This document shows positions 40,201 to 47,435 of a stretch of DNA of 64,000 bases, in pieces. Positions within the stretch are counted from its first letter, which is position 1. Each line of letters opens with the position of its first letter. Position numbers and translations under genes: made by a program. The stretch spans positions 65,040 to 129,039 of the forward strand of contig JAJZYT010000002.1 in the NCBI GenBank assembly GCA_021797915.1, written 5' to 3'. Below the pieces are notes generated by a model. It made no database searches, was not told the DNA's origin, and saw nothing but the letters and a program-made list of their open reading frames with translations. Source of the DNA: Thermoplasmata archaeon. GTDB lineage: Archaea > Thermoplasmatota > Thermoplasmata > Thermoplasmatales > GCA-001856825.

Positions 40201-40389
40201 TCAGGCCCAGTTCAACCTGTCCAGCTCTCTGTCTTTCTTCGTTGCCTTCTTATACTGCTTGTAGTGTTCCTTGCAGAGATGAGCTTTCGTTCCTTTCGAA
40301 TTAAGTGAGAAGATCTTTTCCACAGACTTTCTTCCGATTGTCCGAGCCTTGGGGTTGGAGCAACCCGCGACATCACACTGATCTTCCAT
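40201..40389 (-). CDS. Small zinc-finger-like protein
   Basis: C-x4-C ... C-x2-H ligands (CDVAGC, LCKEHY); leads the top6 gene string. Confidence 0.7.
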   Translation of the reverse strand: MEDQCDVAGCSNPKARTIGRKSVEKIFSLNSKGTKAHLCKEHYKQYKKATKKDRELDRLNWA

Positions 40390-40556: not shown

Positions 40557-40919
40557 ATGGTTCACAAGACAGTTGTACATTTTGAGATACCGGCCAACGA
40601 TCCACAGAAAATTTCAAAATTCTACTCTGAAAGTTTTGGTTGGAAGATTGAAAAATAAGATATGGAAGCTATGGACTATTGATTGATTAAAACGAGTCCA
40701 GATGGGCAAACAGTTGGAGGGGGAATACACAAGAAGATGATCTCTTCAGATACACTAAGAAATTACATGGGAGTGGATGACATAGACGAGTCAATAGAAA
40801 AATTTGAAAGCGCAGGTGGCAAGCAGGTACACGAAAAGGCAGGGGTTCCGGGGGAGGATAGTCCTATATTAGAAAGGATTCTGGGGGCAATCTTGTCGGA
40901 ATTTTCCATGCAAAGTTAA
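40557..40919 (+). pseudogene. VOC/glyoxalase family pseudogene
   Basis: SD GAGGTG then MVHKTVVHFEIPANDP...FY...FGWKIEK*; further TGA, frameshift and TAG before the KDSGGNLVGIF remnant of the DPEGN motif. Confidence 0.8.
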
Positions 40920-41182
40920 AGATATGAACTCTGAGATCAATTGTTCACTCTTTTTCTTCTTACTTTTTATGTAAGAAAAGTCAACCAATTGACTATCATT
41001 TGATAACAGGATCTCGAATATGCATCGAAGCGGTCAAAGTGCTCAGCGATGATAGAGCCAAGATTCCCCCGCAGATGTAACATTTGGAAGAGATGTTCCC
41101 CAGAGGCATCTCAAGGCAAAGTTCTCTTTAGAAATTGACTCCGATCCTCATCAATCTAATCACTCTAAAATCCAGATAAACA

Positions 41183-41217
41183 TTTTATACGGGAGGCTGT
41201 TCGAAGTCTTGGAGGGG
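41183..41217 (+). promoter_or_regulatory. TATA box and SD of the pilin operon
   Basis: TTTTATA near 41183; GGAGGGG at 41211-41217 before ATG 41220. Confidence 0.5.
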
Positions 41218-41219
41218 AA

Positions 41220-41564
41220 ATGAGACTATCTGTTTTGGCACTGACTATATTGATTATCGCCGTGGTTCCAGTATCTTTCGTCCACGGGACTAGCGCGACC
41301 CAACCGTTTGCGTCCGCAGCTGTGAACAATGCTACGGCAATCAATGGGATTGTTCAGAGGGCGTTTGGAATAATAGCGGGAATTTCTGGACTGATAATCG
41401 CAATACTATGGATACCGATAGCAGTTGGCTATTTCTCAAAGGACATGGACAGAAAGGCTGACGCCAAAGAGAGGACCAAGGATGCATTAATTGGGACAGT
41501 CATATTCGTAATGGCTGTGAGCGGTGTATTGTACGCAGTGGTTCACTACATAGTTGCTGGCTAA
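41220..41564 (+). CDS. VirB2/TrbC-like (T4SS-type) pilin
   Basis: Signal peptide then two hydrophobic helices separated by a charged loop (FSKDMDRKADAKERTKDALIG), the conjugative-pilin architecture; gene context. Confidence 0.7.
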   Translation: MRLSVLALTILIIAVVPVSFVHGTSATQPFASAAVNNATAINGIVQRAFGIIAGISGLIIAILWIPIAVGYFSKDMDRKADAKERTKDALIGTVIFVMAVSGVLYAVVHYIVAG

Positions 41565-41579
41565 TCAAGAAATGATTCG

Positions 41580-42611
41580 ATGAACTTCGTTTCGATAATA
41601 GTAGATGCAATACTCAAGGCAATAAGTTACATAGTTTCCGCGATCGTGCTCATAGGTAAACCGATACTTGAATCGCTGTACAACGGTTACATTTCCAAGT
41701 ATCTCTTGTCACCCGGGTACGCATTCCCAAATATAGTGAACGGAAGCATTGGGGTGGGAGTGAAATCGCTCTACTACTTTGTAATGTTCAACATTTATGA
41801 TCCAGGCCTCACAATTGTTCTTACGATCTTGGGGATACTGATACTCCTCAACAGCAGCATTCAACTGGGGTACGACTTCAGAAACATTTGGATCAAGATT
41901 CTGTTGCTTCTGGTCCTTTCTAACATATCGTTCTTTCTGCTTCAGGATTTCCTTTACATTGGTTCTTTGCTGTATACCCAATTCTGGAACTTTGGTTTTC
42001 CATTGCATAACTTTTCTTCAGGTTCCAACATTCTTGCTGGCCTTCAAATCGGGGGTGCGTCAGGGTCGATTGTGAGTCTATTGATACTCATCATCTTTAT
42101 CTTTTTGATGCTCTATCTGCTGCTTTTCCTATCACTAAGGGCTGCGATCATCTACACGCTTCCTATACTCGCTCCAGTCTTCACTCTTCTCTTCATAATT
42201 CCGCAGACCAAAGAAATGGGAGAGAGACTGTGGTATCTTTTCATTGACTCGCTAGTCGCCCCATTGTTGATGGCTGTTCCTTTGATATTATCCACTTATG
42301 TAAGAAATAACAGTGTGCTGGTTCTGGGCTTTCTCGCGCTTGCGGATGCAATCCCTACAATGTTTGCAATGACCCAATCTTCAAGAAATGCAACAAACTT
42401 TCTCGGAAGATCTGTTGGAAGAGGGGTCAACACTTCAATCAGTAAGATTAGCACGAACTTGAAGGGAGCAGAGACTATTGTCAAAACTTTTGCGACACCT
42501 TCTGAGGGCGGAGGAACTAACGGAACTCCACAAATCGGCGCAGTGCGTCAGTTCAGTCCTTTGAACGGCGGCGGATCATCAAACTCTTCCCTTTTTTTCA
42601 AGGTGAGGTGA
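41580..42611 (+). CDS. Polytopic membrane protein, VirB6/TrbL/CedA-like
   Basis: About 6-7 TMs with LR..IIY.L.ILAP...L.FIIPQT...G..LW segment and Gly/Ser-rich C-terminal tail; gene context. Confidence 0.6.
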   Translation: MNFVSIIVDAILKAISYIVSAIVLIGKPILESLYNGYISKYLLSPGYAFPNIVNGSIGVGVKSLYYFVMFNIYDPGLTIVLTILGILILLNSSIQLGYDFRNIWIKILLLLVLSNISFFLLQDFLYIGSLLYTQFWNFGFPLHNFSSGSNILAGLQIGGASGSIVSLLILIIFIFLMLYLLLFLSLRAAIIYTLPILAPVFTLLFIIPQTKEMGERLWYLFIDSLVAPLLMAVPLILSTYVRNNSVLVLGFLALADAIPTMFAMTQSSRNATNFLGRSVGRGVNTSISKISTNLKGAETIVKTFATPSEGGGTNGTPQIGAVRQFSPLNGGGSSNSSLFFKVR

Positions 42612-43198
42612 TTATGGTGAAGATGACCAAGTTTCAGATGTCTTCGTTTAGAATTGGTTCGCTGGAGGGTGCAATCCTCTATCGTCTGATTTTGGTCTCA
42701 TTCTCTGTATTGCTATCCATTTTCTTCCTTCGTACATACGGTTTATTCACGCTCGTTCTGATCCCGATTTTCCTCCTCAGAATCCAGCATGACTATATTG
42801 ATGAGTTTGTCGTGAAGAAGGTGAGGGGAATCACTGCATTTGTGATTCATCCTTTGAAGACTGAAAAGAGCGCCTATTATGAAATATTTGGGTCGAACTA
42901 TGGTTTATCAGATCAACAAGACAGGAACATAGTCTATGTATGGGAGTCGATCGTCGGAACGTTTTCGGAAGATTTGACGATCATTAGGCATCCATACAAA
43001 ATTCCCCTTCAGCGGTTTTTGAAGGGTGATGACGAGTACAATTCCCTGTTTTCTAAACCAGAGAGGTATGCGGAAGCTTACTTTGTAAAGATCAACAAAA
43101 CCAAGACGGACGATTTCGAGAAGATTTTGGGGAATTATGGGGTACAGTTCTCAAAGTTAAGTGAGGAAGAGGTAGGAGTTCTGGATGCCCAGCTCTGA
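42608..43198 (+). CDS. PrgI/VirB3-like membrane protein with cytoplasmic domain
   Basis: Two N-terminal TMs, then soluble YYEIFGSNYGLSDQQD domain; overlaps both neighbours and precedes VirB4. Confidence 0.5.
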   Translation: MIMVKMTKFQMSSFRIGSLEGAILYRLILVSFSVLLSIFFLRTYGLFTLVLIPIFLLRIQHDYIDEFVVKKVRGITAFVIHPLKTEKSAYYEIFGSNYGLSDQQDRNIVYVWESIVGTFSEDLTIIRHPYKIPLQRFLKGDDEYNSLFSKPERYAEAYFVKINKTKTDDFEKILGNYGVQFSKLSEEEVGVLDAQL

Positions 43199-44768
43199 AA
43201 AAAATCAGTCTTCTGTAATCCAGAAGGAGTGGTATTTCGTCAGGAATGGAGAAGCACACTCCTTCCTGTTTGCCAAGGATTATCCTTTCGAGATCGACTC
43301 AAAGTTTAGATCCAAGATTACTGGAGAAGATTCGAAGATAGGGCAGATAGTCAATATACATCCTGTTGAAGACAGCATTGCATGGGAGATAATAACAAGG
43401 GAATTTGGAAGACGGAGCCTTAGGCTGTTAGACCATGAAAAGATGAACGACAGAAACGTGGAGTCAAACAAACTAACGGTCCAGAATATTCAAAATCTTA
43501 AGGAGGTAGTTGCTTCCGGGAAATCCAGACTCTTCAAGTATTCTTGTGCTTATTTCATTCAGGGGCAGCCCAGCAAAATTCTTCCTGCAAAGAAGGAACT
43601 ATTGTACCTGCTCAAAAAACTTGGCGTCAAGACGGAAAACAAGAGATTCTCTGATGCAAAGATCAGGAACAAGGTGATAGATGGTCAGCTTGATGGGGTT
43701 TACCTTGACCCTAGTTCAGTCTCAAACCTTGTACCGATAAACCATGGATACCTCTTTCATGAAGGTGGAACTTTCTACGGAACGTGTGAGGTCTCAAAGG
43801 CTCCTGTATTTCTGGACCGATCAGTCTTTCCTTCGTCCCACCAGCTTGTGCTGGGAATGACTGGTTTTGGTAAATCCTTCTTTGTAAAGGCTACCATGAT
43901 GAGGGAGAAGATAACTAGGAGTGTAGCCCTGAAGATAATTGATCCATTGGGGGAATACGGGCAGCTTTCCAAGTCTATCGGAATGCAATCCATTGACCTT
44001 ATGAACCAGGAAATGAACATGTTTGAAAGGGTGGAGTTTTTGAGCATTAAGGAAAATGTTGACCGTACCCTTGCTTTGATGATAACGCTCTTCGATCTCA
44101 ACAACGAGGACCGTGGTGTACTTGATACAGGAATGACAAAGATGTATGAACAGAATGAGGACCTGAATTTCCTCAGGAATTTTGTTAAGTCCAGTTCCAC
44201 TGAAACACACAATAAGATATCTCCAATTTTCGAAGGTTCCCTGAAGAAGTTCCGAACGGGTAGAAATCCCAACCTCAAAGGAGATCTCAGAATTGATCTG
44301 AAGAATGTTCCTAAGAAACTCCTTCCATTCTACATGCTGCTTTCACTCGATCTCATTATGAGAAGCGATGAGTCAAGTCCTGTAAACTTGGTAATTGACG
44401 AGGCGCACTACTTATTGCAAGAGAGCGTGGTCACATCTGTAGAGAGGTACATAAGACACGCCAGACACAGCAATGTCTCCATGATTTTCATCTCGCAATC
44501 TGCAAACGACTTCTTGAAAAACGGGCCAGCTATAACAGTCATGGAGAACTGCTCAATCCACATTCTGTTTCGACACCAGGTAATCACGGATGAGATGGTA
44601 AGATTCTATTCATTAGACGAAGGACTCTCCAATTTCCTGAGGATGGGGGCCGGCTATAACGGCAAACATTCAACTGCGCTCTTCCTGACTCCAGGTTTCA
44701 CAACCATTCTCAAATTTCAATCCAGCAAGGAGGAGATCGAAAAAATAGATGGAATTCCTAAAGGTTGA
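43185..44768 (+). CDS. VirB4/TraE-like ATPase
   Basis: H.LVLGMTGFGKS Walker A, IIDPLGEY, LVIDEAH Walker B, R.ARH, ISQSANDF, MENCS. Confidence 0.85.
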   Translation: MPSSEKNQSSVIQKEWYFVRNGEAHSFLFAKDYPFEIDSKFRSKITGEDSKIGQIVNIHPVEDSIAWEIITREFGRRSLRLLDHEKMNDRNVESNKLTVQNIQNLKEVVASGKSRLFKYSCAYFIQGQPSKILPAKKELLYLLKKLGVKTENKRFSDAKIRNKVIDGQLDGVYLDPSSVSNLVPINHGYLFHEGGTFYGTCEVSKAPVFLDRSVFPSSHQLVLGMTGFGKSFFVKATMMREKITRSVALKIIDPLGEYGQLSKSIGMQSIDLMNQEMNMFERVEFLSIKENVDRTLALMITLFDLNNEDRGVLDTGMTKMYEQNEDLNFLRNFVKSSSTETHNKISPIFEGSLKKFRTGRNPNLKGDLRIDLKNVPKKLLPFYMLLSLDLIMRSDESSPVNLVIDEAHYLLQESVVTSVERYIRHARHSNVSMIFISQSANDFLKNGPAITVMENCSIHILFRHQVITDEMVRFYSLDEGLSNFLRMGAGYNGKHSTALFLTPGFTTILKFQSSKEEIEKIDGIPKG

Positions 44769-46788
44769 ATCTATAGCACCATTCAATGAATCAAACCCAT
44801 TCCTGCTATCCTGGTTAAGAAGCGGGAAGAGGATTGAGATATTATTCTTCAAGCAAGAAGGAGAAGGAGTGAAACTGTATTTTGGAGGAGATTGTAGAGA
44901 CCTTCTGAAAAAGTCAGGATGGAAGACCTCAGAAACATTTCAATTCAATGAGAGTGGAAAGAGAGTCTTTGTGAAAGGTGACTCACAGACGATTAGATTC
45001 GGAAGTGAAAATCATGCAGACAAGATTGCAGAGTTGCTGAATGAGGAAGAAACTGGTTTTCTATTCATTTCGCTGATACCTCACTATTTCAGTCCGGTCT
45101 CTAATAAGGAACAAAGAGTTGAAGACAAATTTCTAGAAAGAAAGGCAAGGGAAAGAAAAGGGTGGAGGGTCGAACTATCCTACAGGAACGAGAACCTAGG
45201 GAATTACCTTAGTCACATATTCTCTTCTCCTAAAGTTGTGACGAGGAGGGGAAGATTTGGGATCTCCAGACCGGTTATTGCCTGGTGGGAAGTACACCAA
45301 TTCATCCCAACAAGCACGCACTCCCTAAAGGGGGGAGACGTGAGAGTTGGCTCAACCCCTAACAGGGGAGAAATATTCATAGACACCAACAACAACCCGC
45401 ACACCTTGATCAGTGGGTCCTCAGGGGCAGGCAAGAGTTCAATGATAGTAGGAATGATGAATCACATACTGATCAATCAATTGGGAAAAGTAATATTGAT
45501 TGATCCTCACGGAGACACTTCTAAGAAGATGGAGGAATCCGCCTTCAAGAAATTTGTAATATCTCCAGATTCTGCAAATTCCATAAATGTAATAGGCGTC
45601 GGTAGGGAAAATGGGATAACTTACAAAGTTGCAGAAGAATTTGTTTCAATTCTCAGGTCTTCAAGAGAAATCCAATACACAGACCCTCTAGTTGGTCCAA
45701 GGATGGAGGACCTGATCTCCCGAGGAATCTCTCTTCTTGGAAAAATGAAGGGGACGACATTAGTAGATTTTTACAACATCCTCAGAGAAGATGATACAAG
45801 GAAAGAAATTGCCTCCACCTGTAACAACAATGAGCTGAGAAAATTTCTGGACGAATTGGGGGGCATGTCAAGAGAGGAACTTGCGAGTACAGAGAGGGCG
45901 ATAGGCAGGCTGGTGAACGATCCGATGGTGAGATCCCTGGTATGCAATCCAGACGATGAAGGTACCCTCTCAAATGCACTAGCAGAAAACGATCTTGTCT
46001 TGATAGATCTCGAGAGAAGCAGCCTGGGTTACGAAGATTCGAGATTGATGTCAAATATCATGGCTCTCTACATCTGGTTTGCTATCGCTTCCTCAAGGAA
46101 TGGAAACTATTTCCTTTTCCTGGAAGAAGCTCAGGATTACCAGAGCGCGCTTATAGCAGATATGCTAAGTTCTGGAAGGAAGTTTGGCCTGAGAGTATTC
46201 TTCTTGACCACTTCATTCAAATCTATTATTGACAGGTTGTCCTCTCTGTTCTACTCAAACATTTCCAATTACATTTTCATGAAACTCACGGACCCAGACA
46301 AGATCAAGGCAAAGGAACTAATAATGACGGACATAGAAATGCCAAACGAATCTTTCGATTTCGTGCTAATCAACCCCTTTGGAAAGGAAAGGGGCTCAGT
46401 AGAGCCAGTTCGTTTCTCACGGAAAACCAAAGAATTCATAATTAGAAATTACGACTTTATTTCCGAGAGAAAGAAGAGGAATCTATCGCTGCAAATAGAT
46501 GATCTGATATCTCAAATGAAGAGCAGGGAGACCACCTTTTTCGTTTTAGAAGAATTCTGTCAGGTACTGGAAGGATACGACAAAAGAGAAGTCATTACAC
46601 TGCTCAAGGAGAAAATCAACCGGGACCAGAGCATTCACTACGTTGGCAGGATATCACTTGACTCTGGTACGTTTAAGGGGAGGCACGAGTGCTTCCAGGT
46701 CGTGGGGGAAAGAGATGCAACATCCAATCTCCCGAACGAATTCAAGGTCACGAGTGATCTCATTTCCAACCTGTTGGTGAAGAAATGA
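44749..46788 (+). CDS. VirD4/TraD coupling-protein-like (HerA/FtsK superfamily) ATPase
   Basis: NPHTLISGSSGAGKS, LIDPHGD, GPRMED, FLEEAQ, LSSGRKFGL, NISNYIF. Confidence 0.78.
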   Translation: MEFLKVESIAPFNESNPFLLSWLRSGKRIEILFFKQEGEGVKLYFGGDCRDLLKKSGWKTSETFQFNESGKRVFVKGDSQTIRFGSENHADKIAELLNEEETGFLFISLIPHYFSPVSNKEQRVEDKFLERKARERKGWRVELSYRNENLGNYLSHIFSSPKVVTRRGRFGISRPVIAWWEVHQFIPTSTHSLKGGDVRVGSTPNRGEIFIDTNNNPHTLISGSSGAGKSSMIVGMMNHILINQLGKVILIDPHGDTSKKMEESAFKKFVISPDSANSINVIGVGRENGITYKVAEEFVSILRSSREIQYTDPLVGPRMEDLISRGISLLGKMKGTTLVDFYNILREDDTRKEIASTCNNNELRKFLDELGGMSREELASTERAIGRLVNDPMVRSLVCNPDDEGTLSNALAENDLVLIDLERSSLGYEDSRLMSNIMALYIWFAIASSRNGNYFLFLEEAQDYQSALIADMLSSGRKFGLRVFFLTTSFKSIIDRLSSLFYSNISNYIFMKLTDPDKIKAKELIMTDIEMPNESFDFVLINPFGKERGSVEPVRFSRKTKEFIIRNYDFISERKKRNLSLQIDDLISQMKSRETTFFVLEEFCQVLEGYDKREVITLLKEKINRDQSIHYVGRISLDSGTFKGRHECFQVVGERDATSNLPNEFKVTSDLISNLLVKK

Positions 46789-46817
46789 TATTTATCCATA
46801 AAGACATTGGACAAGTG

Positions 46818-47435
46818 ATGAAAGGGGAGGTCAACGATAGTTACCTCAATGCACTCCTCAGGCTAGAGGTAAAAAATGATTATTCACTGGAGCCAGTCTC
46901 AATACAATTTTACAAAGAGGCCAGGAATTATCTCGAGAGCCTTAAAGAGAAAATAGAAACTGAAACCGTGAAAAAGAATTCCAGACAGGTAGGTAAACTG
47001 ACAAATGAACTGGAAGGATCAGAAAAATTTCTGAAGAAGATAATAGAGTTGAGAGTATCGAAGATCCTTAAGGCGAAAGCGAACAACGAAAAGGAAGAGC
47101 TTGAAGGGAAGATGACTCCCGAGGAACAGATCTTCTTCGAGAACATAGCTAAGTCAGTGAGTGAATTTTCAACGCAGCTCGAACAGGGTGAAATCATAAT
47201 ACCCTCAAAGGAAAAAGAAGATGAAGAAGAGGCTGAAATGGAAGTCGGAGGGGAGCAGGAAGAGTCAGAAGAAAAGAAAGTGGCAGTATACATTCTGGAA
47301 GAAATCAAGGGAATATCGATAATGGGTAAACCCGTTAACCTCAGAAAGGAGGACATAGTCACTCTCCCATTAAAATACGCGGGAGTGATTGTTAAACAGG
47401 GTCTAGGAAAAATACTGGAAGGAAGAGAGGAATAA
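46818..47435 (+). CDS. DNA replication complex GINS protein (Gins51-type)
   Basis: FY..A..YL, LRVSKI, MTPEEQ.FF A-domain, acidic linker, L.KEDIVTLP...A..IV..G B-domain; ATG 46818 lies 27 nt after TTTAT. Confidence 0.82.
   Translation: MKGEVNDSYLNALLRLEVKNDYSLEPVSIQFYKEARNYLESLKEKIETETVKKNSRQVGKLTNELEGSEKFLKKIIELRVSKILKAKANNEKEELEGKMTPEEQIFFENIAKSVSEFSTQLEQGEIIIPSKEKEDEEEAEMEVGGEQEESEEKKVAVYILEEIKGISIMGKPVNLRKEDIVTLPLKYAGVIVKQGLGKILEGREE

Follow-up and report, generated by a model that had tools for sequence, protein, structure and literature searches.

The window analysed here is a 64,000-nucleotide stretch of the Thermoplasmatales contig JAJZYT010000002.1 (assembly GCA_021797915.1, forward-strand positions 65,040 to 129,039), and our subject is a run of five co-oriented open reading frames (ORFs) at 41220..46788 of it, the last four overlapping in series, which together form an operon for a type IV secretion system (T4SS): a VirB2-like pilin, a VirB6-fold channel, a PrgI/VirB3-like protein, a VirB4 and a VirD4-like ATPase (Table 1). 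A preliminary description of the window had given this layout, both pairs of ATPase motifs, a TATA-like box and a Shine-Dalgarno (SD) sequence, all of which we find as described, and had proposed a fixed chromosomal machine for DNA transfer or uptake. A TATA-like box and a purine-rich SD recur 5' of the pilin gene in the loci of the family, where inspection by eye revealed no conserved operator besides them.

Parts of the operon

The identities proposed for the pilin, VirB6, VirB4 and VirD4 were borne out by profile and fold searches and by trees of the two ATPases. The window pilin matches Pfam T4SS_pilin with an E-value of 7e-5, below the cut-off; 15 of 19 orthologues match that family (best E 1.7e-8) and three of 19 match TrbC/VirB2, and the pilin profile, searched by sequence against solved structures, found no match. 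We conclude from these sequence comparisons that it is a VirB2-like T4SS component, for which filament formation is predicted. Fold searches, profile neighbours and an Atlas search agreed in identifying the second protein as VirB6. The PrgI-like label of the third is less certain: five of 23 positional orthologues match Pfam PrgI weakly (best E 0.0011) and the window copy does not, but in several Thermoplasmataceae VirB4 carries a similar N-terminal transmembrane (TM) extension as a fusion, which supports a PrgI/VirB3 identity. For VirB4, whose Walker A residues are invariant across 20 orthologues (the copy in an 'I-plasma' record is 75% identical to that of the window), the best NCBIfam matches were VirB4 families (E 1.7e-26, under the curated cut-off), with 92.8 bits for conju_CD1110 as against 19.5 bits for CedB, all under cut-off. 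Of the VirD4-like coupling ATPase, VirD4-A, orthologues turned up in no families other than f1 and f4, and its matches on plasmids (3 of 3) are annotated as T4SS DNA-binding-domain proteins.

Table 1. Features of the operon, its surroundings, the second locus and the plasmid genes compared with it
Feature	Location	Strand	Remarks
VirB2-like pilin gene	41220..41564	+	114 aa; variable signal region and conserved helical hairpin
VirB6-like polytopic channel/stalk protein	41580..42611	+	343 aa
PrgI/VirB3-like 2-TM protein	42608..43198	+	196 aa; soluble C-terminal domain
VirB4 ATPase, MPF_FATA-like type	43185..44768	+	527 aa; GMTGFGKS/DEAH
VirD4-like coupling ATPase 'A' (VirD4-A)	44749..46788	+	679 aa; GSSGAGKS/EEAQ; without TM segment or nuclease motif
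Partner gene and VirD4-B	G000:C11:88,994-91,181 (L074:6995-9182)	-	partner 178 aa; unlinked to operon
VirD4-B	G000:C11:88,994-90,652		paralogue of VirD4-A; overlapped by partner gene
VirD4 of pSOG1	L297:351-3542		PD...ExE tail 3' of ATPase
VirD4 of pMGB1	L299:1766-4855		PD...ExE tail 3' of ATPase
VirD4 of pAH1	L300:1568-4642		PD...ExE tail 3' of ATPase
VirD4 of pT33-3	L298:6164-10276		PD...ExE tail 3' of ATPase
TATA-like box TTTTATA	41183..41189	+	after A-rich stretch like a TFB recognition element (BRE); predicted promoter element
SD GGAGGGG	41211..41217	+	sequence
9-nt microhomology TTAGAAATT	41128..41136	+	left end of G007 deletion; comparison with close relative G007
Second copy of TTAGAAATT	46442..46450	+	within VirD4-A gene; right end of G007 deletion
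GINS subunit	46785..47435	+	Pfam Sld5, NCBIfam Gins23; fixed right-hand neighbour outside the system
Pseudogene	40558..40919	+	upstream of operon; two in-frame stops; not conserved at site

Chromosomal residence, inheritance and loss

Eighteen of 26 family genomes carry the operon at full length, always immediately 5' of GINS and in all but one case with the top6 string upstream (top6A/B in the window), as the preliminary description had it for the window; five lack GINS too, indicating that the region is unassembled there. The vertical inheritance it anticipated is also seen: in 16 genomes, the flanking-gene tree contains all nine splits starred in the operon tree, and all six starred splits of the unlinked radA, which itself sits inside an operon, are found in the operon tree. 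In five measurable pairs, the ratio of nonsynonymous to synonymous substitution rates (dN/dS) was 0.04-0.08 for VirB6, 0.06-0.14 for the PrgI-like gene, 0.03-0.08 for VirB4 and 0.07-0.12 for VirD4-A, as compared to 0.04-0.13 for GINS; the pilin gave 0.05-0.22, and 0.50 in the pair with a frameshift. In one of the 18, G012 (L039:5790-6147), the operon is intact apart from a frameshift in the signal region of the pilin, reflecting either early decay or a mistake in the assembly. Overall, the operon sits in the chromosome as a single copy, evolves under purifying selection and is passed down with its host.

It is also dispensable to its hosts. Three independent losses (G007, G011 and G015) lie on separate branches among the 21 scorable family genomes: G007 lost the operon by a 5.3-kb deletion across the 9-nt microhomology TTAGAAATT, G011 by a deletion that left a decayed stub, and G015 has stops or frameshifts in all five genes. 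Because the G007 deletion leaves a gene stub, the TTAGAAATT pair is not an att site. The marks of an integrative and conjugative element (ICE) or conjugative plasmid (integrase, att repeats, tRNA site) are absent from the operon, as had been stated: the genome's single detected tyrosine recombinase sits on a different contig, the longest direct repeat common to the two 1-kb flanks is 10 nt, and the nearest tRNA lies 5.2 kb away, past the 23S gene. Its GC content (42-44%) is that of the remaining window. A genome-wide search of the 89%-complete assembly for the relaxase families PF07514, PF03432, PF08751 and PF13814 gave no match, the PF13814 control being blank and MOBQ, MOBV and MOBT lying outside the search. 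The earlier claim that the system has no relaxase thus stands for the window and for these four families genome-wide; it falters at the second locus described below. Element-linked patchiness, pseudogene-like dN/dS and folds at odds with the assignments, the points on which the preliminary description had said it could fail, were not seen.

The VirB6 profile matches 111 of the 169 genomes of the order, with one match in 106 of them; this count is a lower bound, the profile having missed two loci that carry such a gene. The VirB4 profile has matches in all 34 Thermoplasmataceae, all three genomes of f4, two of five of f5, all seven of f12 and 35 of 38 of f15 (32 of 35 without three unpublished genomes). 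It has no match in 163 genomes of 25 other families of the class, nor has the VirB6 profile in five Micrarchaeota and Thermoproteota genomes. All 18 further Thermoplasmataceae loci read pilin-VirB6-(PrgI)-VirB4, 13 of them with the same downstream genes, and the six f12 loci have common flanks. By the names of the sources, orthologues occur in Thermoplasma acidophilum, Picrophilus, Ferroplasma, Cuniculiplasma divulgatum and Aciduliprofundum boonei.

The remnant of an ICE that has lost its mobility, retained by drift or for mobilising other elements, would be consistent with the three losses, with the patchiness of the VirB6 core in f5 (7 of 21 genomes) and with the additional copies of related VirB4-VirD4 pairs in G204, G012 and G001. 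We nevertheless consider such a stranded element very unlikely, given purifying selection on par with that on GINS, a tree congruent with the host and a VirB4 match in all 34 Thermoplasmataceae genomes, the lack of integrase, att repeat, tRNA and GC shift, and the loss in G007 by a microhomology deletion that left a stub. A recent mobile element is largely excluded, and a resident, domesticated T4SS is very probably what the window holds.

An unlinked VirD4 with a nuclease-like tail

Elsewhere in the genome lies VirD4-B together with a partner gene, which belongs to no consistent Pfam family and whose product bears no significant likeness to the VirD4-A N-terminus (hhalign E 0.08). VirD4-B has a winged-helix-like segment and, following the ATPase, a tail in which 16 orthologues belonging to three families invariably have H446, P475-D476 and E489-x-E491. 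A model (predicted local distance difference test score, pLDDT, 81) gives the tail an alpha-beta-beta-beta-alpha-beta domain, which is the layout of PD-(D/E)xK nucleases. The VirD4-B model fits the TrwB, VirB4, DndH and HerA folds alike, the ATPase domain filling the fold searches, and an Atlas search with the tail returned only a 0.76 match. When longer proteins were searched with the tail profile (8,000 candidates scored), all 33 matches were ATPase fusions of 543-654 aa, the named ones from Thermoplasmata or Euryarchaeota; 117 of the 169 genomes of the order match, and VirD4-A does not. Motif and model together suggest a PD-(D/E)xK-type domain and a candidate relaxase.

All three genomes that lost the operon also have lesions at the VirD4-B locus. 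In G007, a 2-kb deletion takes the partner and the VirD4-B ATPase, while in G015 VirD4-B has three frameshifts and a stop and the partner is frameshifted; the genes neighbouring the locus align full-length in one frame. VirD4-B is intact in all 17 operon-bearing genomes with full assembly of the gene, and the partner in 15 of these (one is masked by Ns, one not detected). The association (Fisher p 0.0009) is overstated, as related genomes are not independent. Type IV pili are not part of this co-loss, since their two ATPases are intact in the operon-loss genomes. Because a co-lost VirD4 is fused to a PD-(D/E)xK-type domain elsewhere in the genome, the earlier designation of the system as relaxase-less is doubtful, and the presence of such a fusion speaks for export from the donor rather more than for import of the Ced kind.

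The same kind of tail occurs on archaeal conjugative plasmids, four of four of those examined (pSOG1, pMGB1, pAH1 and pT33-3) having PD-x(21-24)-ExE at the matching position of VirD4. In a tree of 33 rows (fast search), VirD4-A, VirD4-B and the plasmid VirD4s cluster by their ATPase domains in a single clade (Shimodaira-Hasegawa-like approximate likelihood ratio test, SH-aLRT, 99.5) that excludes CedB and VirB4. These plasmids are mobile (pSOG1 with an integrase), whereas the Thermoplasmatales genes are fixed among housekeeping genes. Better tail matches (probability 85%, E 7e-6) came from a protein of a Halomarina plasmid and from two additional VirD4s in G204. The tail of the four plasmid VirD4s is a candidate for the fused relaxase of archaeal conjugation.

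Several observations weigh against the tail as the processing nuclease of this system. In Pfam it matches REase_MTES_1575 and CoiA weakly (2 of 16 members each; CoiA E 0.083), and none of the 16 members matches Replic_Relax. Its likeness to the Sulfolobales and pT33-3 tails is faint (hhalign E 0.02-0.03, probability about 2%), albeit the best of 15 windows along three Sulfolobales proteins and with the acidic residues in register, and a combined tail hidden Markov model did not detect those tails at useful E-values. Genus g11 (Ferroplasma by source names; 0 of 11), genus g22 (0 of 3), family f5 (0 of 21) and family f3 (0 of 1) gave no match to the tail; of these, 11, 2, 7 and 1 genomes, respectively, have the VirB6 core, so the core can persist without a VirD4-B gene. 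The lesion of G011 is a nonsense codon in the partner only, VirD4-B being intact with a dN/dS of 0.05; conversely, both VirD4s are broken in G059 and its core ORFs are intact. Lesions in metagenome-assembled genomes may moreover be assembly errors, and the VirD4-like CedD of Ced serves import (PMC11823120).

A further genome, G010 (L271:3119-4763, L278), has a frameshifted VirD4-B and a contig that ends 341 bp past the winged helix-turn-helix gene; we predict that it has lost the operon.

Relation to other systems and proposed working

Of 109 collected ATPases, 81 remained once redundant and short rows were removed (none positively identified as TedB); in their tree, the VirB4s of every host family have a clade of their own, alongside those of bacterial ICEs and plasmids and apart from CedB. 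In approximately unbiased (AU) tests (47 rows, LG+G4), a clade of the operon VirB4 with CedB was rejected (p-AU 0.002 and 0.008), in keeping with the 19.5 bits scored by the CedB model against a cut-off of 700. Monophyly of all Thermoplasmatales VirB4s was neither recovered in the tree nor rejected (p-AU 0.20), which leaves one capture or several undecided. By sequence, the operon resembles MPF_FATA conjugation systems and is not Ced by descent, and the analogy with Ced drawn earlier is not supported in that sense; its PrgI/VirB3-like gene is of a kind reportedly lacking in Ced.

Ced (Sulfolobales and Desulfurococcales) and Ted (Thermoproteales) are likewise chromosomal, domesticated T4SSs with a VirB2-like pilin, a VirB6-like channel and VirB4-like and VirD4-like ATPases, some of the genes being unlinked (PMC9905601, PMC11823120, PMC11868833), and the accessible part of PMC9905601 knows of no further case. 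The possession of two ATPases, previously thought distinctive, is not special, because Ced and Ted have a second one, CedD/TedD (PMC11823120, PMC11868833). Unlike them, the Thermoplasmatales system has a VirB4 outside the CedB grouping, a PrgI/VirB3-like gene (VirB3 homologues are stated to be absent in archaea in what is accessible of PMC11868833) and a pair of VirD4 paralogues, of which one has a nuclease-type tail; DNA import induced by DNA damage, as in Ced/Ted, would be conjecture for the present system. It is a domesticated T4SS, chromosomal like Ced/Ted and not a member by descent. An importer of the Ced kind, taking DNA from neighbouring cells for repair and processing it with the nuclease tail, would agree with the shared chromosomal parts, with the requirement of the Ced/Ted ATPases for import (PMC9905601, PMC11823120, PMC11868833) and with the weak CoiA matches, CoiA being a competence nuclease family; we consider it unlikely, however, as the CedB clade was rejected (p-AU 0.002), the VirD4s cluster with those of exporting plasmids and no conserved operator is evident by eye beyond TATA and SD. 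DprA likewise weighs against it, with a strong match in only one of 25 family genomes and none found in that of the window; nor does this lend support to classical transformation.

The chromosomal T4SSs of Patescibacteria likewise consist of an MPF_FATA-derived pilin, VirB6, PrgI and VirB4, often with a distant coupling protein and no classical relaxase (PMC12102498). Unlike Patescibacteria, the Thermoplasmatales hosts are free-living archaea with one pilin gene, a conserved, co-lost VirD4-nuclease-like fusion and PrgI-VirB4 fusions, of which the accessible part of PMC12102498 reports none. Contact-dependent protein secretion or adhesion of the Patescibacteria type, with the tail vestigial or a self-delivered effector, would explain the similar layout (PMC12102498), the Saccharimonadales protein among the distant VirB6 matches and the several lineages that retain the core without the tail. 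However, the nuclease-type residues are invariant over three families, the VirD4-B locus is co-lost with the operon, and no effector-like gene accompanies the operon in 18 family loci, so we regard this explanation as quite unlikely.

On balance we favour, with modest confidence, a domesticated two-locus machine for cell-to-cell DNA transfer. That its substrate is DNA is probable; that it exports from the donor, with VirD4-B as the processing nuclease, is somewhat more plausible than not. An MPF_FATA-like conjugative T4SS, i.e., one of the monoderm/archaeal kind, would have been captured early in Thermoplasmatales and have become a resident two-locus machine whose cargo is most likely chromosomal DNA. 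As in bacterial T4SSs, VirB4, anchored by the PrgI-like protein, would pull pilin out of the membrane, and VirB6 would nucleate a VirB2-type pilus or mating channel. More speculatively, VirD4-B might cut donor DNA as MOBC relaxases do, VirD4-B and VirD4-A might pump the cut DNA through the channel, and the recipient might recombine it via RadA. MOBC relaxases (TraX of pAD1, MobC of CloDF13) are PD-(D/E)XK enzymes with a comparable acidic motif tied to a coupling protein (PMC12857230); unlike these, the Thermoplasmatales domain is fused to the coupling ATPase and has no Replic_Relax match in Pfam, and no oriT is known. We propose tentatively that the missing relaxase of archaeal conjugation is a PD-(D/E)xK nuclease at the C-terminus of the coupling ATPase (in Sulfolobales plasmids, pT33-3 and a haloarchaeal plasmid), and that Thermoplasmatales domesticated it along with a FATA-type T4SS as a chromosomal system for donating DNA ('sex') that does not derive from Ced/Ted and works in the opposite direction.

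The genes were already on record: a 2016 genome paper lists Cuniculiplasma CSP5_1185-1189 and a distant TraG/TraD/VirD4 ATPase, CSP5_0791, as type IV secretion components, by archaeal clusters of orthologous genes (arCOG) only and, in its accessible part, without a pilin or VirB6 call, nuclease domain or inheritance test (PMC5155288). CSP5_1185-1189 are orthologues of the core cluster, and CSP5_0791, by its name 'TraG/TraD/VirD4 family enzyme', is probably the VirD4-B orthologue. Pili joining Thermoplasmatales-type cells have been described and ascribed to type IV pili (PMC3750248), and the accessible parts of PMC4158269, PMC12350378, PMC13492992 and PMC2745702 add nothing on a Thermoplasmatales T4SS. 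A literature search that left aside subscription papers and supplements found neither this system as domesticated nor an archaeal VirD4-nuclease fusion, and a prior mention is possible.

If our account is correct, archaea outside Ced/Ted have independently domesticated a conjugation machine, one that is present in cultured Thermoplasma acidophilum, Ferroplasma, Picrophilus and Cuniculiplasma and is a candidate mechanism for gene exchange among acid-mine archaea; genetic exchange in Ferroplasma is reportedly the subject of Eppley 2007. Together with VirD4-B, the machine would probably transfer DNA from cell to cell and may give a lead to the enzyme that starts archaeal DNA transfer; through the co-lost VirD4-nuclease-like fusion, the missing relaxase of archaeal conjugation becomes a testable question.

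Some minor observations concern the surroundings and relatives of the operon. The upstream pseudogene, whose 78-aa piece has no Pfam match, is putatively VOC-like (vicinal oxygen chelate). A 62-aa zinc-finger-like gene at window positions 40201-40389 (minus strand) has the pilin as a close neighbour in f1 and VirD4-A in f4, hinting at an old gene order. Families f12 (L173-L178, with a pilin above the TrbC and T4SS_pilin cut-offs) and f15 (L179-L192) have VirB6/VirB4 operons of their own, mostly single-copy and at fixed sites. In f3 and f5 (L063, L064, L066-L068), a secreted-looking protein of 384-616 aa without a Pfam match, possibly an adhesin or VirB5 counterpart, precedes VirB6, and the pilin lies farther upstream. 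Thermoplasmatales-type operons in a WOR-3 bacterium record (L124) and a 'bacterium' record (L133, which also has Thermoplasmataceae flanking genes) are probably mis-binned contigs, transfer being possible for L124. Extra VirB4 copies beside very large VirD4-like proteins (1,069-2,015 aa) in G012 (L050:26-6126), G001 (L051:3178-10256) and G204 (L189/L190) are likely mobile conjugative elements. Finally, Micrarchaeota have VirB4-like ATPases (L143:1891-5898, L157:5739-9657, also L128, L138, L151, L159, L160, L163 and L167) that form a separate clade, with a 2-TM neighbour at most loci and a pilin-like and a polytopic gene before the ATPase at two, and these possibly represent a host-contact T4SS as in Patescibacteria.

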